DNA of 62,973 nucleotides, the filler included, from Lenisia limosa (Eukaryota > Protista > Breviatea), in the NCBI GenBank assembly GCA_001655205.1. It is 17 parts of 17 records of this genome, joined end to end, with 100 filler letters (N's around TTAATTAATTAA, not from the genome) between each part and the next. Parts side by side here need not be neighbours in the genome. Positions count along the whole stretch, not along the records: positions 15,629 to 17,879 come from LPNZ01004375.1; positions 17,980 to 20,151 come from LPNZ01000618.1; positions 20,252 to 21,412 come from LPNZ01004097.1; positions 21,513 to 23,223 come from LPNZ01003254.1; positions 23,324 to 24,419 come from LPNZ01003906.1; positions 24,520 to 26,614 come from LPNZ01008503.1; positions 26,715 to 33,993 come from LPNZ01007806.1; positions 34,094 to 37,281 come from LPNZ01004578.1; 9 more parts are not named here. The stretch is one strand, 5' to 3'. Shown here in pieces: positions 16,553-45,445 of this stretch; the first letter of the stretch is position 1; every line of letters starts with the position of its first letter. The notes below the pieces were generated by a model. It searched no databases. It was given only the letters and a program-made list of their open reading frames with translations, and had not been told where the DNA came from. The translations under genes were made by a program, and so were the position numbers.

Positions 16553-17786
16553 TCCAACACGAGTGGTCAGCAGCATGACGTCAATGGAGGGGTCGTTATT
16601 AAACTCGCGAACCATAGTCTGACGCGAACCGGCCGGAGTACTGCCTGAGACGGGTAAGGGATATTGTATGATTGTCTGGGGGTATATAATGGGACATTGT
16701 ACGGGACACTATATAAAGGGGTATATAATGGGGGTACTATATAAAGGGGTATATAATGGGGGTACTATATAAAGGGGGTATTGGGGTATAAGATTGTTTG
16801 GGGGGGAGTAAAATTGGAAAATGTATATCACAAAACCCCAAATCAACTCTGTTGGCTGATAACACACGAGGGTTGATAACAACAAAACAAACGAAGCTCA
16901 GGCCAGTCGCTTCTGCAGAACCGCATCCCATTCCAACAAATAAAGCCCAGACCTGTCGTATAATGAGTGTGCTTGGCAGTATTAGACCCTCATCCCCCAC
17001 ACACAACCATACAATAATACTAGATTAAACATGCTTTTGTTTTGTTTGAGTGAAAGATCGCTGGGATTCCTCTGATACTAGTATCAAGTCCGCTCGCGAG
17101 TGACGAGATTAGATTCACCCCATAAACACTCTATATATTTTTTCCCATCCATCAATAGCATCCCCCCCCCCCNNNNNNNNNNNNNNNNNNNNNNNNNNNN
17201 NNNNNNNNNNNNNNNNNNNNNNNNNNNNNNNNNNNNNNNNNNNNNNNNNNNNNNNNNNNNNNNNNNTTTCAATGAGGTCCATCATGGACTGATTGTAGTT
17301 AAAAAGGGACAGAAAAGTTGAATAAAGATGTCTGTCAACAAAGTGACAGAAAAGTTTAATGAAGATTTTAGTCCCACTCGTTAACCTAACTCAACCTAAC
17401 TCCCCCATTACCTCTTCCACGTTAACTTGCCAAATTATATGTAATACATATCATATGTATACGTACATATATGTCAATACTTGATAAGTTTGCATGCACC
17501 CCCCCACGTTAACTTGATGCATGCACCCCCCACGTTAACTTGACAGAAGATTAGAACACGGTGCGGGGTTAGCGACGGGATAATTGACGAAGACTCATCC
17601 TAAATACGGTGAAAATAGGACCTTTGAAGCTATAAAGGGGGTGGTAATAGGAAGATAGTTTGCCCCCCCCCCCCTTTATACCTTGCCTATGCCGGCGTCT
17701 CTCAGAATGTCCCTCAGGGCTATGAGCTTGGCAGAGGCCTCGAGGCCACTCACGGCCACGCCGTGTTGCTGGGCTAGGTCTTGGAG
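16553..17786 (-). CDS. BTAF1: TBP-associated SNF2 ATPase BTAF1/Mot1, helicase C-terminal exons (partial)
   Basis: Exons 17786-17682, 17599-17534, 17288-gap, 16644-16553 give SAKLIALRDILRDAGIGK|...PHRVLIFCQVN|SMMDLIE...|MVREFNNDPSIDVMLLTTRVG, the Mot1 signature motifs. Confidence 0.9.
16800..16935 (-). repeat. Intronic repeat family B (~130 bp, no TIR); first of about 14 copies
   Basis: Consensus GGGATGCGGTGCTGCAGAAGCGACTGGCCTGGGCTTTG..AACCCTCGTGTGTTGTCAGCCAACAGAGTTGATTTTGGGC..CATAAATTTTCCAATTTTACTCCCCCC(AG). Copies near 16800, 17787, 20765, 20970, 23150, 24240, 24520, 24995, 26320, 37012, 40945 (x2), 43419 (x2), 45323. Confidence 0.9.
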
Positions 17787-18229
17787 CTGCGAGAGAGTAA
17801 AAATAGGACATTTATGAAACAAAAAAAGCCCAAAATCAACTCTTTTGGCAAGCAACACAAGAGGGTTGAAAACAGCAAANNNNNNNNNNNNNNNNNNNNN
17901 NNNNNNNNNNNNNNNNNNNNNNNTTAATTAATTAANNNNNNNNNNNNNNNNNNNNNNNNNNNNNNNNNNNNNNNNNNNNATGGCTAGGTTCAGGATGGTA
18001 ATACGTAATATGTGGAGGGGGGTCCTGTCTTGGAGCAATTTCTGTCGACAAATAATCAAGCTGACATGGGTATTGACTTTTTCATGAGTTTTCTTGCATG
18101 TATACAGAGCAAATGATTGGGTGATTTAGTACTATTTTAAAATCCAATACCTCTTATAAGCGTGATGGTGTGGACTGCTTCGGCCACTACCTGTTTTTCT
18201 TTATCATCTCTATGTATTTACCGCTGTAG

Positions 18230-18664
18230 GGATCTCGTTCCTCTGGCTACCGAAAACCACTTCAACCAAGCCATGGAGAAGACGAAGGACATGTCTCTGA
18301 TGGAGCTGGAAGAGCTTGAGAAACTGGCTGGAAATGGTAGGTTGATGCCTTACTTTTTTGCTTCGTAAGTTTTCCATTTATGCGTTTGTTTCACGTTGTT
18401 TTTAACCCTCGTGGGTAGGGCTTCACTTCGGTTCGAACAAGACAGGTAAAATATCGATAGTTTTCGAGGATTTTTGAGAAATTCAGTCGTTTTTTCGAAC
18501 CGAAGTGAAGCGCAAAAGTGGAAATTATTTCGTTTTACCGATTCAAAAAGAACCGTAGCAATTTTCACTCCCCAGAATCCGCAACCATCGAGAACGAACT
18601 GGAGGAACTTGTGAGGGAATCTGAGGATACCGTCCCACCCAATACTATGCCCACCATTGCCTAG
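18230..18664 (+). CDS. C-terminal exons of unknown protein
   Basis: DLVPLATENHFNQAMEKTKDMSLMELEELEKLAGN|ESATIENELEELVRESEDTVPPNTMPTIA*. The splice phases are compatible and the intron carries a MITE A. Confidence 0.55.
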
Positions 18665-20686
18665 AGCTAAGGACATTTTTGTCCGTTTTTTTCGTTGTTA
18701 CCCCACTGTGTCAAGACCTTCAGTGTTTTCTTTGATTTTTCTTTCGATGAATGGTACTGATTCATTCATTATCTTTCCTGTGCTTGAGAGGGCTGTTAGC
18801 AAACAAACAAATAATAAAAAAAGCCTTACCACAGCACTTCTGGATATGGGGCAACATTCGTCCCATTTTGACCAAGCAAAAATGTTTTTATTGATGAAAT
18901 CGAGCAACTCCTGCAATAATACTACTGGCTGTCATATGATTTGGTGAATTAATATTAATAATTCAAGCGTGTTGTGGACGGTTTTTTTTATTATCTCAGT
19001 TCTTTTTTTTTTGTTTTTTGTTTTTGACCCTTGTTTCTTTAATGAACAGAGGTGGATTTATTGATTGTTCAAAATTTTTATGCGCGCAGAAAGCGACTGG
19101 CCTGGGCTTTGTTTTCAAGCCTTCTAGCATACAATTATTTTGGCTAATAAATTGTGCAATCCTCCCCTACTAAACAGTGGGAACATCACACCTACAATTT
19201 CACACCGTTAAGTCATGTCCCAAGGTGGTCGCTTTGCTCCCATTGGGCCATTATTCACCAGTAAAAAATTTCGGTATGCTGTATATATGCCGTGCCCACT
19301 CTATACCATTCCCCGTTTGTAATGGCACAGAATATAAACATACATTAGCAGAACACAATAAAAAAGTAAAACATCGAATCGGATAAATACACAGACGGGT
19401 AAAATCGTAAACCAAGAGTGTTCATGGGGGCGATAGGGCGCCTCTACAGAGGTGATCGGGATGAAGATAGTTAAGAAAGGTGGGGGTATAGAGCGTTAAT
19501 TTCCGTTTATTTTGCTCGACTACTAAAAAGCGTTTGACATCGTTTTCAAAAGAATCTCAAGTGTTGTGAAACATTAGATTAGCATTATATAATATATAAT
19601 ATATCATATAAATTATATATAATATATGATGATATATATGTACAGTATATCGATATAGATGAGAATTAAAACAAAGTTGTCTGGCCGAAGCCGTCCACCC
19701 ATGAGATATTGGATTATAGTAGTATTATTACAACCAATCAAAAGTTATAATAGCAATGGTGAAAAATGTTCTGAATAAACAATCTGAATAATGCATCCAA
19801 TCTCGCGATTCGTTTACTGGAAGTCTTTCCTGAAAAATTCTTATCAGTAGTTTTGAAAAAATTGGGTAATTTTTTGTAAAAAGAATGTCCAAAAGGAAAG
19901 AAACCAAGCCTCACCACGAGCTGGAGTCATGGTGACATTCCGGATTAGGCAGTTCCGGATTAGGCAAGTCAGCCAGTTGCGCGTACGGCGCGGCTTGTAT
20001 TAGGGCTGGCGGCTGCCAATCCCGGGCCGGACCCTCTGGAGATCTTTCGTGATCGTCTTGGGGGTGCAGTGTGGGAGAGTTTGAGAGCGAGCGAAGATGT
20101 TGGGGGCTGTTTTGCGTGGCGTGTGTCGCGCCATAGTTTACCGGTGAGGATNNNNNNNNNNNNNNNNNNNNNNNNNNNNNNNNNNNNNNNNNNNNTTAAT
20201 TAATTAANNNNNNNNNNNNNNNNNNNNNNNNNNNNNNNNNNNNNNNNNNNNCAGCACCGCATCCCATTAGTGCGTAAGAAATAGGGGGGTATACAAGCTA
20301 GAATATTGTCTCTTCTAATGGAATGATAGGGGCGTTGGCAATGCCCCTCAGGTATTATGATCAAGGCTTCCTTCCGGTAAGGTGAACTATCGACAATTAT
20401 CGAGGTTTTCAAGTCAGTCCTTTTTGAACCACATGGAAGCCAAGTCCTGATAACTGGCTTCACTTCGGTTCACTGAATTTCTCGATAAATCTTCGAAAAC
20501 TATTGACATTTTCCTGCATAGTAAACCCTTCTGATAACCCCCAATCCACATTCCTTGAGCCTACTTTCAAGACCCCCAAATAGGGTTCCCTACGGTCCGA
20601 AAAAGACCAGTAAAATATCGCTATTTAACGATCAGGCCTTTTTGGAACCATAGGGCCTACCGCCAATCCACAGTCCTTGAGCCTAC

Positions 20687-21412
20687 TTTTGAGATGGCAT
20701 CGAAGTCGTAGACGGCGTTGGTAAAAGACTCGACATCCATGTTGTCCGCCGCGTCACAGAGGGCCTGGGGGGGAGTAAAATGGGAAAATTTATGAAACAA
20801 AAAAACCCAAATCAGCTCTGTTGGCTGACAACACACAAGGGTTGATAACAACAAAACANNNNNNNNNNNNNNNNNNNNNNNNNNNNNNNNNNNNNNNNNN
20901 NNNNNNNNNNNNNNNNNNNNNNNNNNNNNNNNNNNNNNNNNNNNNNNNNNNNNNNNNNNNNNNNNNNNNATGGGCTGGGCTGAAAACAACAAAACAAGCA
21001 AAGACCAGCCAGTCATCGGGTGGGGGCAAATACTGCAGCATCACAACCACAGCATCAAAAACGCAGCATCAAACCAAAACTGCAGCATCAAAAACGAAAA
21101 CCTGAAACTCCAAACTAACACAGAACACCAAACAAATTATAAACTCTTGGGTTTCACTTCGGTATGAAAAAGACCGGTAAAATATAGATAGACAGACCGG
21201 TAAAATATAGATAGGATCTATCGAGAAATTCAGTCTTCTAACCGAAGTCAAGCCAAGAAAATGAACCCCCACCTCCAAAAGCTTGGCCTCGCGGGAGCCG
21301 ACAAAAGAAGGGTCCATGTTCTGATACGACTCCAGCCCGTTACGGGCACAGACGTAGTCCTTAGTGCAAAGTCTGCAGATGCCGGCCTTCAGAAAATAGT
21401 CCTTGGCACTGT
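20687..21412 (-). CDS. NAPA: Alpha-SNAP (Sec17), C-terminal exons (partial)
   Basis: Exons 21412-21273 and 20764-20687 give SAKDYFLKAGICRLC...YQNMDPSFVGSREAKLLE|ALCDAADNMDVESFTNAVYDFDAISK. Confidence 0.92.
21085..21150 (-). repeat. Intronic repeat family C (~120 bp); first of ~7 copies
   Basis: Consensus GTTGGTTGCTCGTGTTTGTTATTGCTTG..TTTGGAG..TTCGGTTCGTGATTAGTA..CCAATATTCTTCATTGAAATTTCC..TTTACTCCCC. Copies near 21085, 23355, 25310, 31571, 40803, 41168, 46016. Confidence 0.8.
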
Positions 21413-21549
21413 NNNNNNNNNNNNNNNNNNNNNNNNNNNNNNNNNNNNNNNNNNNNTTAATTAATTAANNNNNNNNNNNNNNNNNNNNNNNNNNNNNNNN
21501 NNNNNNNNNNNNCTCCCTCCCCCTCCAGTATCCAATTATACCCCCTTAC

Positions 21550-23089
21550 GGCAGTTAAAATCAGGGTGCCATCCAGACTCGACGAAAAAGGTCACAGATC
21601 CGGCCATTCTGGTGAAGGCGAAGGGCGCTTTAATCTCCACTAGGCTGACCTGATAATGTGACTCTTTGGCATGTATGCTGCATATTCACGCAGAAAGCTA
21701 TGTGCACAGTTGTAAGAAAAAGGATTGGGTGAAATAATATACTACATATATTATGTGAAACGAAGAAAATTCCGATTGAGAATCCAAGCCAAGACGCAAA
21801 CATACTGTTGGGTCAGGATCGAAAAAGTGGATGTAAGAGGCATTGCCGGCGGCCACGTAATTGACCGAGCCCGTTAGCACCGTGATCTCCAAGCTGGGTG
21901 GTGAAGAAATAACGACTGGATGGTGAAGATACAAGATTTCCAAAACTGGATGAATGAATATGTAAAATGCTGGATAATGATGCAAAATTGTGTGTTTTAA
22001 AAGGGTCTTCTCCATCCAGTTTGGCGAAAATATGCATAGTATATTATATAATAGTATATCATATAGTACGTATAAATTTGCATCTTCATAATCCATGATA
22101 TGCTGTGGACGGCTTCGCCCAGATACTATCATCAATATCCCTTCTAAATCCATAAAACATGGTGTGAATTTATAAATCCCATCAATATGGTTTTTGAATA
22201 GCTTTGACCTAATATAATATATAATATTTAATACTGGGATCTTGGTGTAATTCCCGCCTACTCTTCGGGTGTTGTGGAGAAGCCTTCGCCAATACATCTA
22301 AACAGTTGTCAGCTGTTGCAAAAGTATTTTGTCAGATATGGAAGGAGAAATGAAAATGAGAAATACATACTCCATTTACTCAATCACCGCCCCCCCCCCC
22401 CANNNNNNNNNNNNNNNNNNNNNNNNNNNNNNNNNNNNNNNNNNNNNNNNNNNNNNNNNNNNNNNNNNNNNNAATTATATCGATATAATTCCAGGTTTTT
22501 TTTCGAGAAATTCTCCTCTGAACTAACTCCTCGGCTTGCTCAGCTGTGAACCTCAGGTCGGTTCAGAGTGAGAAATTCAGTCTTTTTTGAACTGAAGTGA
22601 AGCTCTGATTGCAATCCTACTTATTCTTGTAGGTGAAGCCTCCCGTGTAGTTCACAAAATGGTAGTGATGATCCGCTGCATTTAAACACTGAAAGTATGA
22701 GTATATTGAGAATAAAAAGAAAATATCCAGAATAAAGGATCGTAAGCATTGGAATGGGGGAATGAGTGAATAATATGTAATAAAATAATGCTTTGCATCT
22801 GTTGACCCACATCTATTTAAAAGGATTAGTATGAATATAATTGAGTGAGTACCTTATCTATGTCGATATGTACATTTCCATACATGTACATCATATAGTA
22901 TACTACGATATAGTACATCTGCGAAACGAGAATTGTAACTATAAATACGGAGAATTGAAAAGGTGTGTTATGTATGCTAAATCTTATCCTCCCAGATCCC
23001 CTTCTCCCACCTCATTAGGAATATCCTCGCATTTTTGAACGGGTTTGTTGGTGGACCCAGGGCAGTCGAACAGAGTATCTTGTTGGAAG
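21550..23089 (-). CDS. Multi-exon fragment of unknown protein
   Basis: GT-AG-bounded open exons FQQDTLFDCPGSTNKPVQKCEDIPNE, CLNAADHHYHFVNYTGGFTYKN, LEITVLTGSVNYVAAGNASYIHFFDPDP and VSLVEIKAPFAFTRMAGSVTFFVESGWHPDFN. Phases were not fully reconciled. Confidence 0.45.
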
Positions 23090-23757
23090 CTGGAAGGTGA
23101 GGAAATATAACATAATATAATGTGATAAGAGGTCAGAAAAATAGATGATGGGGGTGGGGGAGTAAAAAAATCAACTCTGTTGGCTGACAACACACAAGGG
23201 TTGGTAAACAAACAAACAAAGCCNNNNNNNNNNNNNNNNNNNNNNNNNNNNNNNNNNNNNNNNNNNNTTAATTAATTAANNNNNNNNNNNNNNNNNNNNN
23301 NNNNNNNNNNNNNNNNNNNNNNNAGGTGTGGTAGGTAGGTGTTGATAGCCTGGTTGGTATAGTGATGCTCGTGTTTGTTATTGTTTGTTTGTTTGGAGTT
23401 TTGGATTATTCGGTTCGTGATTAGTACCTGTACACCAATATTCTTCATTGAAATTTCAATTTCCACTCCCCAGCTCACCTCTTACTGTCAGTCTTACTTT
23501 ACCCCCACCCCACTCCCAGTTGATTTTGAGATTTGCTCTATGTTCTTTTTTATCTTTGTTTTACTGAATGTTTTTTCGATAAATACATTTTTTTTGTCCT
23601 TTCAAAATGCTCTTTGACTTCCTCAGGAAAATCGGCCAAAAATTACCCCTAGGGCTTCCCTACAGTCCCAAAAAAGACAGATTTTCTCGATAACTCCTCG
23701 ATAAATATCGATATTTTGGCGGTCTTTTTTTGGACGATAGGGTTTTTCACTCCCCAG

Positions 23758-24419
23758 TGCCCAGCACAACTCCCTCCTGGCCTTCCGTGAAAACGCTGAG
23801 AAACAAGCTGCTGAAGACCGTGCTCTTTTAGTCAGGCAGTTTACTAGTCTTCTGGAGGACTTCGATGCAAGGAGACAGGGTGATCTCGACCGTACATTGG
23901 GGGCGGTTGGTGGGGGCATTGTCTTGTAGTATACTATATGGTATGCTGGGGAGCACGCAGAAAGCTGTATGCACAGTTGTAAGGCAAATGATTGGGTGAA
24001 TTAATTTTATACTTTCATCCAATATCTCTTATAAGCGATGGTGTGGACGACTTCGACCGGATACATCCTTATTTTATTTCTCATCGCTCTACATACAGAC
24101 CAGGATAAGTCGTGACCGATTTTTCTATTGGATTTCCCAAGGAAAATAGATCAACACTTATCCTGGTCACTGTATATTACAATAGTAGCTACATTACGTT
24201 CAGAGATTCTAATAAATTACATGGTATTAATACCCCCTTGTGATGGGATGCGGTGCTGCACTGGGCTTTGTTTGTTTGGCTGTTAAACCTCGTGTGTTGT
24301 CAGCCAATAGAGTTGATTTTGGGCTTTTTTGTTTCATAAATGTTCCAATTTTACTCCCTCCCCCCCCCACCCAGACCATCAGCACGCTCTCTTCGGCTCA
24401 GCAGAGCAGTGCCGAAAGC
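23758..24419 (+). CDS. Coiled-coil protein fragment (two exons)
   Basis: AQHNSLLAFRENAEKQAAEDRALLVRQFTSLLEDFDARRQGDLDRTLGA|TISTLSSAQQSSAES, using donor 23906 and acceptor 24374. Confidence 0.5.
23950..24095 (+). repeat. Dispersed repeat family E (~150-170 bp, no TIR, both orientations); ~12 copies
   Basis: Consensus GCACGCAGAAAG..GTTGTAAGGCAAATGATTGGGTGAATT..TCCAATATCTCTTATAAGCGATGGTGTGGACGGCTTCGGCCAGATACAACCTTATTTTTTATTTCTCATTGCTATATA. Copies near 18100, 19660, 21680, 22080, 23950, 25950, 26445, 27630, 35470, 40600, 53080, 54970. Confidence 0.85.
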
Positions 24420-24619
24420 NNNNNNNNNNNNNNNNNNNNNNNNNNNNNNNNNNNNNNNNNNNNTTAATTAATTAANNNNNNNNNNNNNNNNNNNNNNNNN
24501 NNNNNNNNNNNNNNNNNNNAGAGTGAGGTAAAAATAGAAAACAACAAGCACAAATCAACTCTTTGGCTGACACCACACGAGGGTTGGAAACAAACAAAAC
24601 AATAAGCCCAGCCCCCCAC

Positions 24620-26199
24620 CAGGTCAGGGAAGGGGATCTCTTTGCCCTCTTTCTCAGCATCTTCATTGGCAAGGAACTTAGCGCAATGCTCAATATCGCC
24701 TGTTATGGTAAGTTCACTCTCCGCTTATGGAAACTAGAATTTCCTTTCATATTGTTTCATGGAATGCACGTTATCTTACTCAACATGCATGTATGGTAAA
24801 TAATAAGAAACATTTTCATGTAACACAACTATAATACCATATAAACCCATATGGCAAGTTCCATATTTGGCAATTTAGCAAACCAGGTCTGATCTCGTCA
24901 TTGGACATAAGCTCAGGGTGGTCCTCACGTATCAAACGTCCGGCTTGCCACACATATGCCTAGGAAGTGAAAATCTACGAATGAAACAAAATAGCCCTAA
25001 AAACACAAGGGGGTTGAAAACAAAAGTGAAACTAAAAAAAATTCCACAATCAACTCTGTCGCCTAGTAACATACGAGGGNNNNNNNNNNNNNNNNNNNNN
25101 NNNNNNNNNNNNNNNNNNNNNNNNNNNNNNNNNNNNNNNNNNNNNNNNNNNNNNNNNNNNNNNNNNNNNNNNNTTCCTCAAGCCCTCCTACTGGGTTGTT
25201 GAGGCAGCTGTATTCCTCTTCAATCATATTTTCGGGATCAACATCCACGAGTACTTTCTACGAGGATTAATCGGTACAAAATGTAGAAAGATGATGAAGA
25301 GAAGGGGGGAGGGGTGTAAAACGAAGGAAATTTTGATGAAGAATATTGGCGTGAAGATACATCTGAAACTCCTCACAAAAAAAAACAAGCAATAACAAAC
25401 ACGAGCAACCAACACTAAAACTAGACGATGATGATAATGACGAGAAGAAGAAGAAGAAGAAGAAGAAGAAGAAGAAGAAGATGATGATGATGAATGAAGA
25501 ATGAAGAATGAAGGATGAAGGATGAAGGATGAAGGATGAAGGATGAAGGATGAAGAAGAAGATGATGAAAATGAAGAAGATGAAATAAGAAGACGAAAAA
25601 TAAGAAACATAGAGCCAGCCTTCAAGGATTACTGCATAACGTCTCCTTTGAAATTAGGGGGGGGGGGGNNNNNNNNNNNNNNNNNNNNNNNNNNNNNNNN
25701 NNNNNNNNNNNNNNNNNNNNNNNNNNNNNNNNNNNNNNNNNNNNNNNNNNNNNNNGGCTGTTTGGTGAAAACTGAATGCGGTGTTTAAAAACAAAAAATA
25801 AAAAAAAAGATAAAGGGGAACATATATAGGAGAGCCCGCGGGGGGGACTCAAACTCTGAAAGTTTGACAAACACACAAGTAAGAAACACAAGACCTATAA
25901 ATGATCAAACAAAACACTCCTCCCCTACTATAATTAAATAAATGTCTTATATATAAGTGCGTGGTATGGACGGCTTCGGGAAGATACAAAACTTATTTTT
26001 TTATTTCTCATTGCTATATATCATATAATCAAACATAAGCCCCTTTACCATTACTGTGATCGAACGAGAGGGCCTGGTACATTTCCGAGGCCTGCCACTG
26101 TTCGCGATAATGGTCGGCACGCTCTTTGGGCGTTTCGAAGGTGTCATTAACGAGGTTCGGCCACTTCTTCTCCAACTCAGCCTCGTCAATCTTAAACAT
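24620..26199 (-). CDS. Multi-exon fragment of unknown protein
   Basis: Exons MFKIDEAELEKKWPNLVNDTF..., KVLVDVDPENMIEEEY..., and AYVWQAGRLIREDHPELMSNDEIRP|GDIEHCAKFLANEDAEKEGKEIPFPDL. The last two splice in phase. Confidence 0.6.
25440..25580. repeat. (GAA)n/(GATGAAG)n simple repeat, intronic
   Basis: Visible tandem GAA then 7-bp GATGAAG units; the 7-bp period argues against coding. Confidence 0.9.
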
Positions 26200-27430
26200 C
26201 TGGGGGGGGGGGGGGGNNNNNNNNNNNNNNNNNNNNNNNNNNNNNNNNNNNNNNNNNNNNNNNNNNNNNNNNNNNNNNNNNNNNNNNNNNNNNNNNNNNN
26301 NNNNNNNNNNNNNNNNNNTAAAAAATAAAAAAAAGCCCAAATCAACGCTGCTGGCTGAAATATGGACGGTCCGAAAAAGACTGGCAAATATTGATGTTTA
26401 ATTGTGTGATTCCGACTATTTATGTACTATTAACAAAATATAACAATGAGAAATAAAAAAAATAAGGTTGTATCTAGCCGAAGGCGTCCACACCATCACG
26501 CTTACAAGAGATATTGGATTAAAGTACTATATTAATTCACCTCTATGCAGACAACTTTCTGCGTGCCTCCCCAAAATCCGAAGAAATTATGGGACATCTG
26601 GGGACCACAAACACNNNNNNNNNNNNNNNNNNNNNNNNNNNNNNNNNNNNNNNNNNNNTTAATTAATTAANNNNNNNNNNNNNNNNNNNNNNNNNNNNNN
26701 NNNNNNNNNNNNNNTGTGATTGGTGGTGATTATGGATTAATTTTTTATGTTTGGGGGAAAGAAAGGGTGGAGGGTGAGGGATTATGTTTTGGGCATGTTT
26801 TTATTAGGGAGTGTGTGGGGTGGGGGTCGGAGTATTCCAACGAACTATTTTTGATAGAGTCCATGATATCCTACTAATGAATTATCTCTTGTCCCATGTG
26901 AGCCTTAATTATCTCAAGTCCCTTTCCTAGTAACTATCTTGTCTATTATTTCTAAGTAATTGTTGTCCCTTGTTTTTCTAGTAACTGTCTTGTCACATGT
27001 TTTATTTTTTATTTTCTAGTCCCATGTTTTCCTGCATCCGGCTCACGACATTCCCCTTCTCTCCGCTCAGAAAAACCAAGTACTCTCACAGTGGGTTTGA
27101 GATATAAGTGGGGCTTCACTTCGGTTCCAAAAACGACTGAATTTCTCGATTAATCCTCGAAAACTATCGATATTTTACCAGTTTTTTTTTATCTTCAGTG
27201 AAGCCCAAAATATAAGTCCTAGAATACAACCACTTTCAGTTCAGTCTTTTTGGTACCTAGCATGAAGGAATTGTCGGTGAACCTTTTTTTCAACAGCTTT
27301 ATAATACATATACCCTCTCCCTCATATCTCAAATNNNNNNNNNNNNNNNNNNNNNNNNNNNNNNNNNNNNNNNNNNNNNNNNNNNNNNNNNNNNNNNNNN
27401 NNNNNNNNNNNNNNNNNNNNNNNNNNNNNN

Positions 27431-29181
27431 AAACTTTGTCAGGAATTACGTTTTCACACCCAGGACAAGGAAATACGCAGCCACATCCGTTGAAGAGGTT
27501 AACGGAAATCTTACGGAGGCTGCGTTATCGAAAATTGACCATATTTCCCAAGATGCTCTTGATGGGCTTTCAACGTGTCTTATAATGACAGGGGAATCAG
27601 GTGAGAGGGAAGGGGGATTGTAGTTATTGTATTCACACACAGAGTTGTAAGGCAAATGATTANNNNNNNNNNNNNNNNNNNNNNNNNNNNNTGTGGACGG
27701 CTTCGGTCAGATACAACCTTATTCTTATTTCTCATGCTATATATTATGTACATGATATAGAGTCAATCCACCCTCTTTCCCTATAACGCGAATACAACAC
27801 TTTAAATGCGTAACAGCAGATTTTTCCTCATAGTGTACCTCAGGATTGGGCAAGACGGTGTCACTGTTCTCTCAAAATGGCCTTGTGCAAGGCATTTGTG
27901 CTTCTCTCTGCGGTAAAGGTAGGCGGAAGATGGTTTTAGTGTTATATTTATTATTTTTTTCAATAATTAAGTAATCCTTCCCATCCAGGCTTAACAATAG
28001 AACATATTGTCGATAAATAAATCAAAACGTATTCCTCACCAATTTGCTCCCTTTCCTAGGCTCTACAATTGCCCTCAGCGCTTGTGAGATTGTCAAAGAC
28101 GAAATTATCGATTTGTTCTCCTCTCTGGCCCAATCAGAGGAGCCCCAGAGCCCGGGTAATCTTGTCGGACTCAACATTCGATCCAGTCATGAGTCGAAGT
28201 TAGCCGTAGATTTGGCCACGGCGGCGTCAACAGGGTTCACTACTGGCAATGATGGTGGGTGGGGGTTAAAATATTAAAAGGGAAAGATAGTGGGGAGTGG
28301 AGGGTTATTGTATACCGTATGATATATGATATATGATATACTATGCATGATTGATATAGGGACTATGCATGATATATGATATATGATATCCAGTGACCGG
28401 GATAAGCGATTTTCCTTGGGAAACCAATCACTTAGCAAATCGGGCAAGTCTTATCCCGGTCATTGTTTTTATACATATTATATGATATAATATGATAAAG
28501 TTTATAGATAATGTGATAGGTTGGCGAGGAAAGCAGAATATAATTCTATGAATTGAGACAATTTTCCTTTTTTTTTTTTTTTCTTNNNNNNNNNNNNNNN
28601 NNNNNNNNNNNNNNNNNNNNNNNNNNNNNNNNNNNNNNNNNNNNNNNNNNNNNNNNNNNNNNNNNNNNNNNNNNNNNNNNNNNNNNNNNNNNNNNNNNNN
28701 NNNNNNNNNNNNNNNNNNNNNNNNNAGGGTATCCTTCAGCCATCCACACCACATCAGTCATACTCCTCCGGATATCAGTGTTCCATGCAGCCTCCAACAA
28801 GTTGTCTTCTATTTTTGTTGTGGATCTCCCGGGACTTCCCTCTAATGGTGGGTTTGGTTTTCTGAGAATATGAAAATAGTTCCACAAATACAACACAAAA
28901 GCAGTAGTAATTCCCACTAAATCAGTGTGTTTCCCAAAAGCCAACAGTGTTGATTCTTGGTTTATTTTCTTCAATTNNNNNNNNNNNNNNNNNNNNNNNN
29001 NNNNNNNNNNNNNNNNNNNNNNNNNNNNNNNNNNNNNNNNNNNNNNNNNNNNNNNNNNNNNNNNNNNNNNNNNNNNNNNNNNNNNNNNNNNNNNNNNNNN
29101 NNNNNNNNNNNNNNNNNNNNNNNNNNNNNNNNNNNNNNNNNNNNNTCTGAGAATTCTCCAGCATATGGCAGAGAAGAGAAG
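27431..29181 (+). CDS. Divergent kinesin motor-domain protein (partial)
   Basis: In-phase exons (..27600, 27844-27918, 28060-28254, 28728-28847, ..29181) give DALDGLSTCLIMTGES|GLGKT (P-loop), LSACEIVKDEIIDLF, and IHTTSVILLRI...SSIFVVDLPG (switch II-like). Confidence 0.7.
28391..28465. mobile_element. MITE family D (~78 bp, TIR CAGTGACCGGGATAAGTCTTGACCGATT, TA target)
   Basis: Best copy 42261-42338, flanked by TA on both sides. Others near 24100, 28391, 33615, 36510, 41738, 60135. A CAGT end plus TA target is typical of the pogo/Tc1-mariner superfamily. Confidence 0.88.
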
Positions 29182-29873
29182 GTGGGTAGCAATGGGTTGA
29201 GTTGGGGCTTGACCTCTCTAAGTCTCATTTATGCGTGATTTTGAAATATGTTTCGTGGGTCTCTACCTTCACTCTTGCACCCATCATCCTCTCATTTTCT
29301 CTCTAATTTTTTGTCTGATGTTCGATCGAAACATGTGTGTTAGCAAGAAATAAGATACACGACACAGAACTCGTGATCCTTCTCTTTACTTCTGAACACG
29401 ATTTTACTCCTCTTTGCCAATTTCGGCAGAAGATTATTAGCTTTTTAAATAGAAGTAAAATAAAAGTGAGGAGGGGTGGCACGCAAACCTCGGCAGAGGA
29501 TCATCAGCGTTTTAAATAGAAGCAAAATAAAAGAGAGAGAGAGGGGGGGGGGTGGCACGCAAACCCCGGTGCTATATATTGACTGACACAGTTTGTCTGC
29601 TCTAGCCTCTCATGGCGTTTCTCCACTTTTTGAACAGTCAAGGACCAGCTTAGTTAACGCAAAGTGTTGTTTTCAGATCAAACATCATTGTACTGGGGTA
29701 CATCATTCTCTACAAGTCGGGAAATGCCGATGAGTATTTCGCGCCTTATCAGGTATTAGAATAAGTAACAAACCAAATTGACAATAAGTAACAATTGCAA
29801 TGCTAATAGTTACAATATGAAGTGCCTATTAGCATTGCACTTTCCAGTTGGCAATGAATCAGTAGGTCAACAG

Positions 29874-31152: not shown

Positions 31153-31349
31153 CAATACTATTAGCCTCATATTTTAGATTGTTCTTGGCACCATCACTAC
31201 TAGCCTCATATTTAGATTGTTCTTGACTCCGTCACCATTAGCCTCATCTTTTAGATTGTTCTTATCAACATCACTACTAGCCTCATCTTTTAGATTGTTC
31301 TTGTCACCAGTACTACTAGCCTCATCTTTTAGATTGTTCTTGTCACCAG
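31153..31349. repeat. Five ~39-bp tandem repeats ending at a splice acceptor
   Basis: Unit (CAG)TACTACTAGCCTCATCTTTTAGATTGTTCTTGTCAC. Confidence 0.9.
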
Positions 31350-31832
31350 TATCTCGGCAGACGCCTCTCCGGTGCTCCAGAACGCATTGCTTTCGGTCGC
31401 TTCGGGGTGAGTACTCATAACATAAATATCATATCACTTTCTGTATCATTTTCACATACGTGTACTACCATTTTTTCACGCACCCCTTATGAAATCCTTC
31501 TGTTGGACTCTTCAAAGGCTACTCGGGCTTGTTTTTGTTTTTGTATTTTTTTTTATCTGGTTTTTGTCAAGTTTTAGCGTTGGTTGCTCGTGTTTGTTAT
31601 TGCTTGTTTTTTTTGTTTTCTGTTTGGAGTTTCTGATTATTTTTTTCGTGATTAGTTCCTTTACGCCAATATAATTCATTGAAATTTCCTTCATTTCCCC
31701 CTCCTCCCCCTCTCCAGAACAACCGGAATTGTTTCGAGTGTAGTGAAGGGGCATGATGCAGGAGCGGACGTTCTTGGCCACCTGGATTCGTGCTCTCTTC
31801 TGAGCATTGACCATCTGCTTCCTGTTCCTGCT
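31350..31832 (+). CDS. Two exons of unknown protein
   Basis: 31350-31406 and 31718-31832 splice in phase 2 to give ISADASPVLQNALLSVASG|TTGIVSSVVKGHDAGADVLGHLDSCSLLSIDHLLPVPA. The donor is GTGAGT. Confidence 0.55.
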
Positions 31833-33775: not shown

Positions 33776-34093
33776 GTAAGCCTTTTGCCTAGTTTATGGA
33801 GCTACCAGGAGGGGGTTTGGGTGTTTTGCTCACCTGCTTTACAAGCTTTCCCCTTAGCTTTGTATTTAAACTTTTTACAGCATTGAAACATTAATCTATC
33901 TTTTCATAGTATCCTAAATCACAGCCTTTTAAATTTATTTTTTAATCATGTTATGATCCCAGACCCCCACAAAGAGCTCACCCAAAAAGGGGTNNNNNNN
34001 NNNNNNNNNNNNNNNNNNNNNNNNNNNNNNNNNNNNNTTAATTAATTAANNNNNNNNNNNNNNNNNNNNNNNNNNNNNNNNNNNNNNNNNNNN

Positions 34094-35202: not shown

Positions 35203-37275
35203 TTAGTTGGTTTTCTTTGCCTCCTTCTCTTCCCTGATTTCCTCCGGGGTTGGAGGGACTACAACAAGAGGTTCATCGCCATCAAACCTAACATGTAAAA
35301 AACGATCTCATATTGATAAACAATCAAAGGTGCAACAGACTGATTGGGTAAAAATAAATTTCTATGTTTGAGTTTCATCATAGAAATAAAAATAGGTGTG
35401 TTTGGCCAATTGCCCACATCATCACACTTAAGAGAGATCACACTTACGAGAGATGTAATACTATTTCACCTAATCATTTGCCTTACAACTCTGTGCACAC
35501 AAATCAGATACTATGAAGATCGACAATATCAACACACAGAGCCCCACCAGTCGTAAATTGACAGGGCAAAGCCAAGGTGAATCCATAAGAAGAGAACCCT
35601 CGCCATTGAAGCATGTCGGGAAGTCTATGGGGGGGGGGGGGNNNNNNNNNNNNNNNNNNNNNNNNNNNNNNNNNNNNNNNNNNNNNNNNNNNNNNNNNNN
35701 NNTTCGATGAGGAAAATTGGCGTAAAGGTAACAAAAGGGTGGGATGCACACGAAGATTAACGCTAATCGCACCACTAACATTCATCGTTTTCATTAGAAC
35801 TTCACTTTTGGTTCCAAAAAAGACTGAATTCTCGATAAATCCTCGATAAATACCGATTTTATCTTTCTTTCGGAACCAAAAGTGAAGCTCTGCTTTTAAT
35901 CAACCCCTCCACCAACATTTGAGATATTGCCCATTTTCCAATGGAGCACATAGAGGAAAGCCACTACAGAGCGTAAAGAAAGAAAAATCTGGTGAGTAGT
36001 TTGCTTCGGCAAATAAACCGAATGTGATTCAATACTATAATCACATCGTCTTGGTAGGATTACCACTATCTACATGGAAACCCACGGGTAAAAAACACCA
36101 CATTGCCCCCGTACGTCCCGTCAATAAGACACTCCTGGTAACAATATGGACGATTTTCTCAAAGCAAATCCCCACTAGGGCCCTACTTCGTTTCGAAAAA
36201 AAAGACTGAATTTATCGATAAATCATTGAAAATTATCGATACTTTTTCGGATCGAAGTGAAGCCCAACCTAAAACCTTCCCCCAACACACAACATACATC
36301 CTCCCCTCCCCACTTATAGCAGCTTGGCTTCCAATAAACAAAGCAGGCTGTCTTGAGCCGAAGAAAATGACAAGAAGAAGCAGGATGGAAGCAAATAGAA
36401 GACACGCTGCAGAGAAGTCGTAGAACATTCGCAGGAAGTCCTGGCCAGCTCTGAAAGTATTATTTTGAATGTACATACATGTACATATGATATATAATAC
36501 ACGTATGTACAGTGACCATAATAAGTCCTGACATGATTGACTAAAGATAATGCTCAATATTCCTGTAAGGACATATTGGGGTGAGGCAAAACATATTTTC
36601 ACTTCGGCTCTATATTAGACCCCCCATTATCATTCTTAAAGCAGGGTAAGATTCAGAAAATTGGCTCGGATTTTCGTTCAATTATCCGATGATTTGCGCA
36701 TATTGAACGTGATTTTCACCAAATCTTGGAGTCTTTCAAACTGAAGTAACGGGAAGTTATTAACAAAAAAGTAATTCGTTTCAGAATTACCACCCTTCTT
36801 TAATACCCCTACCCATTAGCGTCGCTGAAGAAAGATGAAAGCTGTTGCTTTGACTGCAAGCCAAACATTTCCGCATTAGCTTCCCAATCGATCATCCATG
36901 GCTAGGGGGGGGGGGGNNNNNNNNNNNNNNNNNNNNNNNNNNNNNNNNNNNNNNNNNNNNNNNNNNNNNNNNNNNNNNNNNNNNNNNNNNNNNNNNNNNN
37001 NNNNNNNNNNNGTGGCTGATAACACACGAGGTTGAGAACAAAACAAACGAAGCCCGGTCAATAATAATTACATTTATTGCACCAAATACAAATCACACAA
37101 GTCCCTCTGTCGGTTCTATTAGTACCGAATTTCTCGATAAATCCTCGAAAACTACCGATGAGTCCGCTACGTACCTCCGGGGACATGAGAAAAGAAACCG
37201 ACAGTAAAATTCCGACTGATGCAGCAAAAAAGACGGCAGAGCCTGAAATGAAGCGGATAGCCTTCATACTGAGCC
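35203..37275 (-). CDS. Multi-pass membrane protein, unknown family
   Basis: Hydrophobic exons MKAIRFISGSAVFFAASVGILLSVSFLMSPE, ACLLFASILLLLVIFFG, VVAFLYVLHW..|VVRLALIFVCIPPFCYLY, and RVLFLWIHLGFALSIYDW|FDGDEPLVVVPPTPEEIREEKEAKKTN*. Confidence 0.6.
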
Positions 37276-37440
37276 CTGGGGNNNNNNNNNNNNNNNNNNN
37301 NNNNNNNNNNNNNNNNNNNNNNNNNTTAATTAATTAANNNNNNNNNNNNNNNNNNNNNNNNNNNNNNNNNNNNNNNNNNNNGTGATATGACTTATATATA
37401 ATATATAACAGTAAAAAACATCACTCAAGCCTTTCCTTAC

Positions 37441-38482: not shown

Positions 38483-38522
<40 letters not shown>

Positions 38523-39471: not shown

Positions 39472-39780
39472 GATGTACGTTAAGGGCTGTGAAGAAGGTC
39501 AGGAAGAGTCCAGAGGGGTCTTGGAGCGAACAAGTCAAAAGATTTTACGACACCTACCTTGAACTCTGAATCAAATTAGAGTTGAACAGATACACTAAGC
39601 ACTCTGACGTTGAAAAAGGGGCCATTTTGCTGAATTGTCATCTTTTAAAGGCTACCTCGCGCAGCGGAGCCGATCAAATGTGAAATCCAAAATTATTTTG
39701 ACAAAAACAACAGAAAAAAAAGTCTTTATAGTGGTTATGTTGCGTAATAATTAAACAAATATTGACGTAAAAGTGCCGAA
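39472..39780. promoter_or_regulatory. Putative bidirectional promoter between divergent SLC35F6-like and VPS11 start codons
   Basis: Only 309 bp separate the two head-to-head ATGs, and the region is repeat-free. Inferred from position only. Confidence 0.5.
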
Positions 39781-41454
39781 ATGTTTCAGTGGCCAAAGTT
39801 TGTACCTTTATTCATTTCCCCAGTCGTGCTAATCGGTATTTAGGTTCCAATTCTATAACAAGGAAACCCTTCCTGCTAATGGGACCACACAGAAGCTCCA
39901 ACAAGCAACTATAACTGCCGTTTCATCCGGAAATGGTCTGCTATTGCGTTCTGAGGCGTTTCCCCCATTCTCTTTAACTTATTTTTATAGGTTCCGTTGC
40001 TGCAGGTTCAAATACCGGCGAGGTCTTTCTTCTTTCGCGAGATCTCACAGTGACCTCCTTGAAGGTTCTGGGGAAATTAGGCAAGCGCAAGGTATTTCGA
40101 ATGACAAGACTTTTATTCAAAATTTTGCTTATGTGAAAGTTAACCTCGAATATTAATGTTCAAGGTTGTTTTTGCATTCCCCTTGAAGACTCTTTTCTTC
40201 GCCTTATTGTCTTTCCTCTTGAAGGCTTTTCTTCACCTTATTATGCTTCTTCTTACAGTCTTTTCTTCACCTTATTCTTCCTCTTGAGGCTTTTCTTCAC
40301 CTTATTGTCATTCCTCCTAATAATGTTCTTTCGTTCAACTTGTTCATTGAGTCATCTTTTCTGATAGTCTTAATGCTTTTATATTATCATTTATCATTCC
40401 TTTGAGGGTAGTTCCGGGACTTTATAAAGGGTTTCTCAGATATAGTATTAAAAACATTTTTGCAAATTGAAACTAGGATCATAAATATATTTTTAGGAAA
40501 GTGTTGGTTGCTTTGTTCTTTCCTGGTTAGTCTTGATCGATTTTTTTGCAAGGAATTTTGATTCAATTGGTCAAAGTTTGAGCAAAATATGAGAAGCTTA
40601 GGCAAATGATGAGGTGAATTATAATTATACTGTAATCCAATATCATATCTCTAATAACTGTGATGGTGTGAACGACTTCGGCCAGAGAAAGCCTTGTTTT
40701 AAATCTCATCCCTGCATATGCTAAGCGTTTATTCGACTTTGTGAACCTAAATTTTACTCGGGTTGTATTAGTAGAATGACCCCTTTTATCACAGGCATGT
40801 CATGTTTTTTGCTTGTTATTTTTTTTTTATTTTTGTTTTTTGTTTGGAGCCTCAGATTATTCGGTTCGTGAATAGTATTACGCCAATATTCTTCATCGAA
40901 ATCTCCTTCGTTTTACTCCCTCCTCTCCGAGAATATGAGCTTTGTTTGTTTCGTTTTGTTACTTGTCAACAGAGTTGGTTTTGGGCTTTTTTTGTTTCAT
41001 AATTTTTTTCCAATTTTACCTGGAGTGATGGGATGCGGTGCTGTAGAAGCGACTGTCCTGGGCTTTGTTTTTTTTTTGTTTATTTTTCAACCCTCGTGTG
41101 TTTTCACACAGAGTTGATTTTGGGCTTTGTTTTGTTTCATAAATTTTTCAATTTTACCCCCCATCAAGTTTTAGCGTTGGTTGCTCGTGTTTGTTATTGC
41201 TTGTTTTTTTGTTTGGACTTTCAGAATGTTCGGTTCGTGATTAGTACCTTGACGTCATCAAAATTCCTTCATTTACTCCCCCCGCTCCCACGTCTTTAAG
41301 AAAATCCAAGTTAACTATCAGGGTTATTATTTTCCAATTTCACCCCCCTCCCTAGGCATTCCAGCACTCCACATCCGCCGTGGCTCTGAGCAGCAAGAGG
41401 GACCTACTAGTTGCATGTGGTATTGACGATCTAAACGATCCCGGAATCCTGGCT
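39781..41454 (+). CDS. VPS11: Vacuolar protein sorting 11 (HOPS/CORVET), N-terminal beta-propeller exons
   Basis: Exons 39781-39797, 39844-39935, 39991-40064, 41356-41454 give MFQWPKFQFYNKE..ITAVSSGNGSVAAGSNTGEVFLLSRDLTVTSLKAFQHSTSAVALSSKRDLLVACGIDD. This matches VPS11 W.RF.FF.KE / IT..DSGRG / L..VGED. Confidence 0.85.
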
Positions 41455-42479
41455 GTGGGGGGGGGGTAATATATAATTGAATTAACGACAGCATAGGACC
41501 TNNNNNNNNNNNNNNNNNNNNNNNNNNNNNNNNNNNNNNNNNNNNTTAATTAATTAANNNNNNNNNNNNNNNNNNNNNNNNNNNNNNNNNNNNNNNNNNN
41601 NTAACTTTTTCGTGTGGTCACTTAGTGTTCGTTATTTTTGCCTGTAAAAACCTTCAAGCACCAATATTCCAAAAAAAGCATCGATTTATCTAAAAAGCAC
41701 CGTTTTTTGTGGAAGGGAATATATATTCATATAGAGTGAAGAACAGGATAAGTCTTGACCGATTTGCTATATGAGTTCCCAAAGCAGATAGGTCAAGACT
41801 TATCCTGGTCACTGTATATATATACATGTATCGTTTATAACGATGACAAGTATCAGCTCACATACCTCCCCCCCCCCCCNNNNNNNNNNNNNNNNNNNNN
41901 NNNNNNNNNNNNNNNNNNNNNNNNNNNNNNNNNNNNNNNNNNNNNNNNNNNNNNNNNNNNNNNNNNNNNNNNNNNNNNNNNNNNNNNNNNNNNNNNNNNN
42001 NNNNNNNNNNNNNNNNNNNNNNNNNNNNNNNNNNNNNNNNNNNNNNNNNNNNNNNNNNNNNNNNNNNNNNNNNNNNNNNNNNNNNNNNNNNNNNNNNNNN
42101 NNNNNNNNNNNNNNNCGTGTCGCGGGAACGGTCAAAAGTGAGGGGCGTGACAATGAAGGGCGTCGCTGTGGTTTTGGGCGGAGCTGATGGGTAGTTAGTA
42201 CAATAAAGGATTGAATTGCTGGACAAACTCTGGGTTTCCTTGCCCCAAAAACTTAATATACAGTGACCGGGATAAGTCTTGACCGATTTGCTATGTGATT
42301 TCCCAAGGAAAATCAGTCAAGAGTTATCCCGGTCACTGTATATCTTGATAATCCTTGGTAGATATCCACATTTTCCCATCCCAAATATCACAGAAGCGAT
42401 GAAAAATACTATGAGAATGAAACCAAACTATCTACATCATCACAAAAAAAGCCAACATGTAAAGCTTCAAAACCAATAA

Positions 42480-42655
42480 TAAAAATAGTAACAATAATAG
42501 TAACAATAATAGTAACAATAATAACAATACTACTACTACACATAATAATAATGCAATAATAATACAATACTAATAGTAGTTAATAACAAAAAAATAATAC
42601 AAGTAGTTAATAACAATAAAATAATACTAAGTAGTAGTTAATAACAATAAAATAA
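42480..42655. repeat. AAT/AAC/AGT low-complexity tract
   Basis: AATAATAGTAAC-type units. Confidence 0.85.
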
Positions 42656-45445
42656 AGGCTGGAGCGCCAAAACTCCGAATTTTATAATATAACTCCGAAT
42701 TTTATTTTTTCCAACAACGCACAAATAAGTTCATATTTCATGAAAACAAAGAAAAAATGCACATAAAACATAAAATGAAGACAATAGAATACTGTATTTT
42801 CCATAAAAGAGCAAAATTGGATCACTTTTTTTTGCTGATCTTGCCTTGATCTTGAAAAAAAAAATTTCCCCTGAAACATCATTTTCTCTCGTTTCCGCGT
42901 ATTTTATTGATATTTTTGTAATATATTTTCATTTTCGAGTGGAAAGGTGCAGGAGGGCGCTTTAAAGAGGACTTTTTGGACTTTTTTTTTTATCCAGATT
43001 ACAATTTGATTTTTAAATTTTCTTCTTCCTTTTGCCAAAAGGCTCTTGAAGATATAATATACGAAATAGTTCATAGATAAAATCAGCAAAAGTTNNNNNN
43101 NNNNTGTTTTCCACTCCGCTCCCTGTCTAATATTGAGCATTGCTATTGTAAGAAGCTCTCTATGAGAGGAAATCACCCACTCACGCTTCTCTATCTGATT
43201 CATCTTCTAACAGTCAACTTTTTGCTGCTACCATTTGACCTTATTCAGTGGCACCATGCACTACCCGAAAATGGTTACCCAATCGCTTCCAAAGCCTACT
43301 TAAAGAGGTTATGCTCAANNNNNNNNNNNNNNNNNNNNNNNNNNNNNNNNNNNNNNNNNNNNTTAATTAATTAANNNNNNNNNNNNNNNNNNNNNNNNNN
43401 NNNNNNNNNNNNNNNNNNCAAACAAAGCCCAGGCCAGTCGCTTGAGGATTAACCGCATCCCATCACTCCAGCGTAAAATAATATGGGGGTAAAACATGGG
43501 GTGGCGGGGGATTTGGAATAGTTATGAGACAAAAGAAAGCCCAAAATCAACTCAGGCTGAGAACAACAAAACAAACAAAGCCCAGGTCAGTCGTTTCTGT
43601 AGCCGTAACATTTCATTTTAGCATTGTATATTGGGGGTTTCACTTCGGTTTTGAAAAGACCGGTAAAATATTGATAGTTTTCGAGGATTTAATCGAGAAA
43701 TTCAGTCTTTTTTGAACCGAAGTGAAGCCCATCTCATAAAATATGAAGCCACAAAAAACGTTCCCATTGTATTTGAAGGGAAGGGGAATGCTCAACACCC
43801 ACTTTTGGTGCAGGGGAAGGGGGGGGAGATAGTAGGGTACTTGAAGAATTCTGAAACAGTCAACACATAAAATCATTATGTATTACTGAAATCCACTAAA
43901 CCCATTTAAATCTCGGGAAACATTTTTTATTTTTTCATACAGTATCATACCAAAAGAGATATCAAATCTAAAGACAGATATCCATTCCAACCCCAAACAA
44001 ACTGAAGGTAATAACCCCCTTGGGTTTATATTATTTTTGCAGTAAAGTTTCTATTGAAACTAGAATCATAGAGAGTAAAGTCTCTATTGAAACTAGGATC
44101 CAGCGGTTGACTACACAAAAGAATCCACAGAAAACGACAGAAACAGGAGGACTTCACGAACATATAATTATTCAAATATGGTTTCAGGCTATCTTTGAAT
44201 TGAGACACGAGTCCTCAAACAACATAAATCATCTCAGTAAAAACGGCAACTTTCCTGGTACCCCACTTTAATAATACCCTTCCTCCCACAAGCCTAGCCT
44301 GTCTTAGCCGGTCTTGGACTCGTTGGGCTNNNNNNNNNNNNNNNNNNNNNNNNNNNNNNNNNNNNNNNNNNNNNNNNNNNNNNNNNNNNNNNNNNNNNNN
44401 NNNNNNNNNNNNNNNNNNNNNNNNNNNNNNNNNNNNNNNNNNNNNNNNNNNNNNNNNNNNNNNNNNNNNNNNNNNNNNNNNNNNNNNNNNNNNNNNNNNN
44501 NNNNNNNNNNNNNNNNNNNNNNNNNNNNNNNNNNNNNNNNNNNNNNNNNTAGAATGTAACTGTAACATTGATACAACAATAAAACCTAAAATCAACTCTG
44601 TAAGTTAAACATTTGCAAAATCAAGAAACCAAAAACAGCACCCCTCACCCTCAGAGGGGTACTGACTGTGGATCTCTAAACAGTTAATCCGTGTGCAAAT
44701 CAAATCTATATTCAGGGTGGGGGCAAATCAAATCTATATTCTTGGTGGGGGCATTGCGAGAAAATAGGATAACTCTTGACTCGGACCATCATGAAGCCAA
44801 ATAATACTTCCTACTACTAACATTATATATATATATTCAACAGGTATTCGATAATATTGATGCAATCAGTGAGCCAAATACGCAGGTTCTATTTCACAAT
44901 ACATGTACAACCGAAACAAAAAAATCATACTTGGGTGTGAAATAGTGAAGGCATCACAGAATATTTAAATAGTAGGTTTGGTTCCACGCACCGGTGGTTT
45001 GACAGGTGTTGCAGGCTGGGGTGTCGAGACTGGAGGAGGTGCTGACGCTCGTTCAGAGTCCCTCTGTACCATAAGTCATCATTCCCATTATGTGCTCTCG
45101 TCCATCCCAAGGGATTCACTTCGGTTCGAAAAAGACCGGTAAAATATCGATAGTTTTCGAGGATTTTTCGAGAANNNNNNNNNNNNNNNNNNNNNNNNNN
45201 NNNNNNNNNNNNNNNNNNTTAATTAATTAANNNNNNNNNNNNNNNNNNNNNNNNNNNNNNNNNNNNNNNNNNNNAGAATACTTTCAAAACTCCTCGACAC
45301 CCCCCCCCCCTAGTGCCGCAAAAGCGACTGGTCTGGGCTTTGTTTGTTTTATTGTGGTCAACCTTCGTGTGTTACCAGACAACAGAGTTGATTTGGGCTC
45401 TTTTTTTTTGTTTGTTTCATGAATTGTCCAATTTTACTCCCCCAG

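Follow-up and report, generated by a model that had tools for sequence, protein, structure and literature searches.

Does a repeat found at the 3' ends of introns make those introns, or does it take over introns that already exist? The question is raised by repeat B, a sequence of roughly 130 bp that recurs in a 62,973-nucleotide stretch of DNA from the breviate Lenisia limosa (assembly GCA_001655205.1), hereafter the window. A sequence-only reading had placed B in the sense orientation in introns of unrelated genes, supplying their 3' splice sites, and had offered two interpretations: an intron-generating element, or a mobile acceptor cassette that seeded the 3' splice signal of this genome. 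The observation largely holds and replicates on independent contigs, and the acceptor-cassette reading is supported on small numbers; neither intron generation nor seeding of the splice signal finds support. B is likely an aged element of introner-like type that displaces the 3' ends of old introns, not a maker of new ones.

The window consists of 17 small scaffolds chained by 100-base N linkers and contains many further gaps, often at G or C runs. As the scaffolds are unlinked, only relations within a scaffold count, and the named genes are not neighbours.

Sequence and distribution of repeat B

We built a profile of length 147 from eight window copies of B. It gave 19 non-overlapping matches in the window at E<0.01, covering 2.5% of the non-N bases, while the reversed window gave none at E<0.5. 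The matches are spread over 15 introns and 11 host genes, which bears out the general description of B. The exception is the name VPS11 for one host, a by-eye label that none of the tools used bore out; we call this gene VPS11-like.

The full unit is shaped like an intron, running from GT to AG over about 140 bases. It has a head (TGGA-GTGATGGG), T-rich blocks, a conserved core and a tail of TTTTAC plus a C-run, followed by AG in some copies. In 5/7 intact heads, GT is followed by a G-rich stretch, as in the donors of the host genes. The 5' ends vary between copies and the 3' tail is retained. Among the eight most complete copies (28 pairs), identity ranges from 71 to 88%, with a median of 79.9%.

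B lacks terminal inverted repeats (the ends of three full copies are not complementary) and has no consistent flanking repeat around eight copies, and we rejected a miniature inverted-repeat transposable element (MITE) on both grounds. Helitrons end in CTRR at the 3' side, with a GC-rich hairpin just upstream, and insert before a T. A non-autonomous Helitron was also rejected: acceptor copies of B end in CCAG, GCAG, TCAG, ACAG or CTAG, the next base being G, C or A, and the consensus hairpin is weak (-2.3 kcal/mol) and far from the end. This hairpin has two-sided changes in one of nine pairs and shows no covariation. One of five copies folds better than its shuffles (z -3.3); the other four do not. 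With E values up to 1 allowed, Rfam returned no match for any copy of B, and none to tRNA, 5S or 7SL families, and no clear polymerase III B box was seen by eye on either strand.

To look beyond the window, we scanned other collections with a B motif. There were no matches in metagenome contigs or viral contigs, and three in prokaryote genomes, all on mis-binned eukaryote contigs. The motif matched two contigs inside a bacterial metagenome-assembled genome (G001), of which three further contigs also bear B. These five contigs (L092-L096, corresponding to C39, C43, C60, C67 and C69) amount to 27,643 bases and share no overlap with the window. They carry B and the other repeat families of the window (C, E, F and T) together with spliced-looking genes, and are hence mis-binned eukaryote DNA, apparently from the same organism. 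They hold nine B matches at E<0.02, against none in the reversed control.

Copies of B lie in the sense orientation

We set the host strand without using B. Three genes were assigned by homology, with Pfam for alpha-SNAP and EML and PDB for an SNF2-type gene; for all others we relied on donors, acceptors, open frames and AT skew after repeat masking. In the window, 18 copies are sense and none antisense, with one host unknown (19088-19160). L092-L096 add eight sense copies in three hosts, no antisense copy and one whose host is unknown (L094 1449), for a combined 26 sense and 0 antisense at threshold. Counted by host gene the ratio is 14:0 (P 1.2e-4), or 14:1 (P 0.001) when a sub-threshold antisense piece is included. 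The statement that every copy is sense is not fully borne out: it holds at threshold, but below it a B tail lies antisense in an EML intron.

Family E had been described as lying in both orientations, and it does (6 sense, 11 antisense, 2 unknown). Families T (3:2) and F (7:3) bring the pooled ratio of the three to 16:16. The bias had further been called specific to B. However, family C has 7 sense copies to 1 antisense and likewise ends in a branch point and a C-run; the orientation bias is therefore common to B and C.

The B tail as an apparent 3' splice site

In ten visible cases the B tail is the apparent acceptor, five in the window and five on L092-L096. The latter five come from eight host-assigned copies, and two of them end consecutive introns of a galactokinase-like gene. 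Within the window, AG directly follows the tail at 17787 (the 3' two thirds of a copy cut by a scaffold end, 17787-17879, - strand, before a BTAF1-like exon), at 20765 (20765-20858, -, in alpha-SNAP) and at 45445 (45313-45445, +, a 5'-truncated copy before an EML exon). A full copy with its GT head at 24240 and its AG at 24374 forms the 3' end of a longer intron (24236-24374, +), with 12 extra C-rich bases before the AG. The fifth acceptor, 24960, is the degenerate last tail of two degenerate tandem pieces (24960-25079, -). The first four had been named in the sequence-only reading and all were seen, 20765 being confirmed by transcript. Transcript proteins of two other hosts were searched for and not found, so the acceptors at 24374 and 23757 stay putative.

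Three more window copies run into gaps just ahead of the next exon. B fragments enter gaps at 26325-26359 (-; the next contig starts with a C-run and AG) and 37013-37058 (-; the next contig starts with a C-run and TAG), and a degenerate B enters a gap before the next exon at 28925-28967 (+). A further degenerate tail lies ahead of a gap at 44556-44602 (-).

At four internal copies in the window that retain a tail (16799, 23155, 41020 and 41162), the C-run is not followed by AG. The near-full copy at 16799-16936 (-), in an intron of the SNF2/BTAF1-like gene, is followed by its acceptor 154 bases on (16645) and preceded by a partial B (16935-16961, -). Short tandem repeats containing TACCCC (16660-16795) fill the space between this copy and the acceptor. 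An internally deleted copy at 23155-23223 (-) has its acceptor 65 bases on. The VPS11-like gene contains a stack (40800-41355, +) of a C copy (40800-40934), a partial B (40936-41020), a full B (41020-41165), a second C copy (41164-41290) and an ordinary acceptor at 41355.

Further copies are a head cut by a scaffold end in the next alpha-SNAP intron (20252-20272, -), a partial B (20977-21014, -) within the same alpha-SNAP intron as 20765-20858, two head-to-tail copies (43499-43605 and 43419-43470, together 43419-43605, -; host strand from AT skew and donors), a weak fragment (59654-59704, +), and the degenerate copy at 19088-19160 (+), which lies 3' of a stop codon.

No support for B as the seed of the ordinary splice signal

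To see how far B accounts for 3' splice sites in the window, we curated 36 acceptors by hand: 5 derived from B, 1 from C, 5 candidates for a B tail alone and 25 unlabelled. A branch-point motif lies 6-15 bases from the end in 20 of the 24 unlabelled acceptors that were scored; TTTAC or TTCAC occurs in 7 of the 24, with an added C-rich spacer in 3. The motif of the B tail is hence a common form of the ordinary acceptor.

We then compared the 32 bases upstream of the branch point with B, relative to shuffles. This is a loose test, in which a few unlabelled acceptors also reach p<0.05 at lower scores. Likeness to B was found at 47839 (47808-47839, +; p 0.003) and 60598 (p 0.013), and not at 18575 (p 0.11), 23757 (p 0.23) or 41355 (p 0.22). 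Four introns had been said to end in tail-only copies of B; three of these ends (18575, 23757 and 41355) are ordinary acceptors, leaving 47839, itself weakly B-like. The suggestion that B seeded the 3' splice signal of the genome is not supported either: only 5/36 acceptors clearly derive from B and two are weakly B-like, while 20/24 acceptors not derived from B have the motif.

More generally, introns here commonly have G-runs right after GT, C-runs right before AG and a branch point some 10 bases short of the end. Many of these G-runs and C-runs coincide with breaks in the assembly.

The alpha-SNAP intron is probably older than its B copy

The alpha-SNAP intron that ends in B (21272-20765) lies after residue 236 (E236), in phase 0. 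Exon 21273-21410 (-) is 100% identical to P0001, a 285-residue Lenisia limosa alpha-SNAP from a transcript assembly. The two flanking exons encode P0001 residues 191-236 and 237-262 contiguously, which confirms splicing at 20765.

To date this position, we compared it with soybean, using the available parts of the published work. A splice-donor variant is described at the end of exon 7 of GmSNAP11, and published probes put the donor directly after a leucine and an alanine codon. The mutant reads three new residues and then a stop, with a reported product of 239 residues. A supplement on the paralogue GmSNAP14 numbers that alanine as residue 236. Soybean alanine 236 falls in the alignment column of Lenisia residue 236 (soybean being matched by eye, through a motif and a plant-like row), and none of the 40 aligned alpha-SNAP homologues has a gap near the junction. 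The Lenisia intron hence equals intron 7 of soybean GmSNAP11 in codon and phase. A position common to a breviate and a plant would most simply be ancestral. As soybean also has it, B probably did not create this intron.

The next alpha-SNAP intron (after residue 262) lies one codon off soybean intron 8 and was not counted as shared. Metagenome alpha-SNAP loci are intronless across the site in 80/80 cases, which says nothing either way on the age of the intron. Human NAPA presumably has an intron at the same site.

Visible donors of B-bearing introns lack the B head

If B made its introns, its head might be expected at their donors. Of the 12 B-bearing introns with a visible donor, none starts with a B head. 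B begins 5 to 3,383 bases inside these introns, within 10 bases of the donor in only one, and the three near-full copies among them lie 200-360 bases in. The single case of B adjoining a donor is the intron from 24619 (24520-24619, -), which had been described as nearly all B after its donor. It does read GTGGGGGG, a G-run donor, and then B from model position 37, headless; its own AG lies beyond the scaffold end. This is the best candidate for an intron made by B. In the cases open to a test, the proposal of an intron-generating element is not supported, with 0/12 donors carrying a B head and the one dated position common to a distant orthologue, an outcome that the sequence-only reading had named as refuting.

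Introners are the natural comparison. In the available text of two surveys, similarity is demanded at both splice boundaries, and secondary insertions into existing introns are dropped (PMC9860276, PMC12130899). By that test B is not an introner, as its head is at the donor in 0/12 introns. Nor does it occupy a new intron position at the one datable site (alpha-SNAP) or form near-identical full-intron copies (median identity 79.9%, best pair 88%); the sequence-only reading had proposed looking for copies above 90% identity. The unit does hold splice signals in the sense direction (a GT head in 5/7; branch point, C-run and AG; 26:0). In the parts of the survey literature available, introners are, like B, repeat families tied to intron ends; in some of them the 3' splice site is the only one carried, and some are devoid of terminal repeats and target duplications (PMC9860276, PMC12130899, PMC11282704).

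The closest parallel is with the introner elements of Micromonas pusilla (IE-A to IE-D), which the available part of PMC3879977 describes as sense-only, with reverse splicing into pre-mRNA proposed, and with 32 remnants buried in conserved introns in addition to nested or merged copies. B resembles them in being sense-only, intron-shaped and without clear secondary structure, and in its partial copies in pre-existing introns, merged copies and decay through insertions and deletions (PMC3879977). However, the Micromonas elements described there are mostly whole new introns at unique positions, with remnants lacking both splice sites, whereas no clean stand-alone B intron was seen. B thus behaves like the nested portion of the Micromonas family, except that its copies provide host introns with their working acceptor, in one case in an intron common to plants. 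Antisense Alu elements offer another parallel, as a short repeat that gives a 3' splice signal on one strand and has an orientation bias near exons. In the available text of PMC3088655, though, Alu acceptors create new exons within the element and selection acts against them close to exons, while the signal of B is at its very end and serves the downstream exon of the host.

How B may spread, and alternatives

The reading of B as a mobile acceptor cassette is supported: the copies are sense-only and anchored at the 3' end, the tail is the acceptor, and the pattern is replicated on independent contigs. We think it somewhat probable that B is a sense intronic repeat copied into the branch-point and C-run region of existing introns, taking over the acceptor and leaving the coding sequence unchanged. 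The copying mechanism itself is inferred. New copies may be templated by intron RNA or by a transcription-linked single-stranded copy, as proposed for the Micromonas introner elements, which would explain the one-way orientation. The anchor could be the short likeness between B and ordinary acceptors at the branch point and C-run. A copy landing flush with the exon would keep its AG and become the acceptor, one landing further upstream would persist without an AG after the C-run, and repeated landings on an earlier tail would give head-to-tail stacks. Family C may be a second element of the same habit.

Several junctions are consistent with such landings. An earlier B tail immediately precedes four of the seven intact B heads, and in three of these the join falls just after TTTTAC. 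The truncated copy at 45313 directly follows an older C-run and TAG, and the one at 40936 follows a C tail and AG. In 7/12 cases the 30 bases upstream of the B 5' end contain a C-run or branch-point motif, compared with 11% of intronic positions.

A number of points weigh against this reading. The upstream motif was picked post hoc, three of its seven positives are tandem copies, and it may be part of B's own 5' end. Only one B acceptor junction (alpha-SNAP 20765) is confirmed by transcript, and only one B-ended intron position has been dated; its junction, AG|G, is moreover the type of site where parallel gain is likelier. Host strand comes from homology in only 3/11 window hosts and, weakly (E 1.3), in one of the three new hosts, the rest depending on splice motifs, frames and skew. 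The sense strand of B is T-rich like the host introns, which could favour weak sense matches. The 19088 copy may lie outside introns, and the L094 1449 copy has no clear host. In the EML intron, an antisense sub-threshold B tail (46065-46099, E 0.39) is joined to a C fragment (E 1.5e-4) right after the donor G-run (together 46015-46099, -). B makes up most of two short introns (24619 and L096 2086-1979), which it could have created. Finally, no near-identical pair exists among the eight most complete copies (best pair 88%), and neither insertion polymorphism nor a mobilising enzyme was seen.

The two short introns, together with the full GT-to-AG unit (5/7 heads) and the sense-only orientation shared with Micromonas, are also what would be expected if B were simply an old, ordinary introner that made many introns, whose 5' parts were later split off or erased by MITE insertions and deletions. 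Copies in ancient introns would then be the nested or merged minority known from Micromonas, and decay of introners into ordinary introns has been described in the available text of PMC3879977. We nevertheless consider this unlikely, given that no visible donor carries a B head, that the three near-full copies lie well inside their introns, and that the one dated position is common to soybean. A second alternative is a non-autonomous retroposon that uses its C-run tail as a primer for reverse transcription at G:C runs (sense at acceptors, antisense at donors), without any link to splicing. It would account for the variable 5' ends with a kept 3' tail, for the C-runs upstream of several B 5' ends, and for the single antisense B/C piece adjoining a donor G-run. 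Repeat-targeting non-LTR (long terminal repeat) elements are known; our literature search returned none. However, donor G-runs are common and antisense copies are almost absent, there are no target-site duplications around eight copies, and neither tRNA, 5S nor 7SL families match. The LINE-like (long interspersed nuclear element) remnant in the window was recognised by eye only and is Pfam-negative. This explanation thus strikes us as improbable.

Random insertion followed by selection against antisense or misplaced copies, as for Alu near human exons, seems more improbable still. Orientation bias through selection is established for mammalian elements (PMC3088655, available text), and the four internal copies with an intact tail but no AG after the C-run are in keeping with it. 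However, it requires insertions exactly flush with the exon, of which ten are seen; mammalian elements are depleted, not enriched, near acceptors (PMC3088655); and families E, T and F lie in the same introns without such a bias.

Other repeats and genes

Family C, of about 145 bases, is sense-biased, stacks with B, and shares no likeness with it beyond T-runs and the tail. A full copy (31566-31717, +) ends at an apparent acceptor at 31717, and a copy at L095 311-416 does so at L095 311. Other copies lie at 23364-23478 (+), 25302-25426 (-), 35703-35730 (-) and 46635-46685 (+). Inverted ends and, in several cases, TA flanks make families E (about 97 bases) and T (about 80 bases) resemble Tc1/mariner MITEs (43634-43730, 60447-60543, 42260-42340 and others). 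For both families and at one other site, Rfam gave only chance hairpin matches. Family F is intronic and about 145 bases long, with a 7:3 sense ratio and one copy that folds above shuffles (z -2.1); it occurs at 23951-24095 and in 11 other matches.

Broken transposase-like frames lie in introns at L095 701-1566, L095 2332-3140, L093 1078-1957 and L094 160-1130, one of them Tc1-like by eye, and are possible former partners of the MITEs. At 8339-10357 is the decayed LINE-like stretch, with endonuclease-like and reverse-transcriptase-like words by eye, in which Pfam found nothing. A 139-codon frame at 7536-7952 has weak helix-turn-helix matches and is perhaps a remnant of the pogo/CENP-B type.

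The names alpha-SNAP and EML are supported by Pfam, and the third homology-based host matches SNF2-type helicases in PDB, which we take to indicate Mot1/BTAF1. Pfam also identified an SR-like protein with an RRM and a zinc knuckle (61701-62080) and a D-glutamate-cyclase-like protein (50478-51349). A GCN1-like gene (46856-49450) and a kinesin-like gene (27431-29190, host of the copy at 28925-28967) were recognised by eye only. On L094, a DnaJ-like gene (4065-5500), judged by eye, differs from the other genes in its very short AT-rich introns (about 25 bases), of which some seem to lack AG; it could be decayed or come from another organism.

Implications

Our literature search found no description of these repeats in Lenisia or breviates; the species' genome paper was beyond its reach and may describe them. 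The main text of PMC9860276, in the parts available, mentions neither Lenisia nor breviates (its supplements were outside the search). No report of acceptor replacement by a repeat family was found either, in a search that most subscription papers fell outside. Surveys discard repeats that match one intron end only, so a family like B would be invisible to them. Even as an aged ordinary introner, B would be the first record for breviates within the literature searched, which did not include the species' genome paper.

A broader claim, which we hold tentatively and rather doubt, is that B, C and perhaps further families are mobile cassettes for the 3' splice site that paste intron 3' ends onto other introns, having replaced about one sixth of the acceptors here, among them those of introns dating back to the last eukaryotic common ancestor, while the proteins stayed unchanged. 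The origin of transformed splice signals is still open in some lineages (10.1101/2022.06.08.495308, available text). If B does replace old acceptors, splice signals could turn over and be homogenised genome-wide without intron gain or loss. The positions of such introns would then be ancient, and their splice signals recent selfish DNA.

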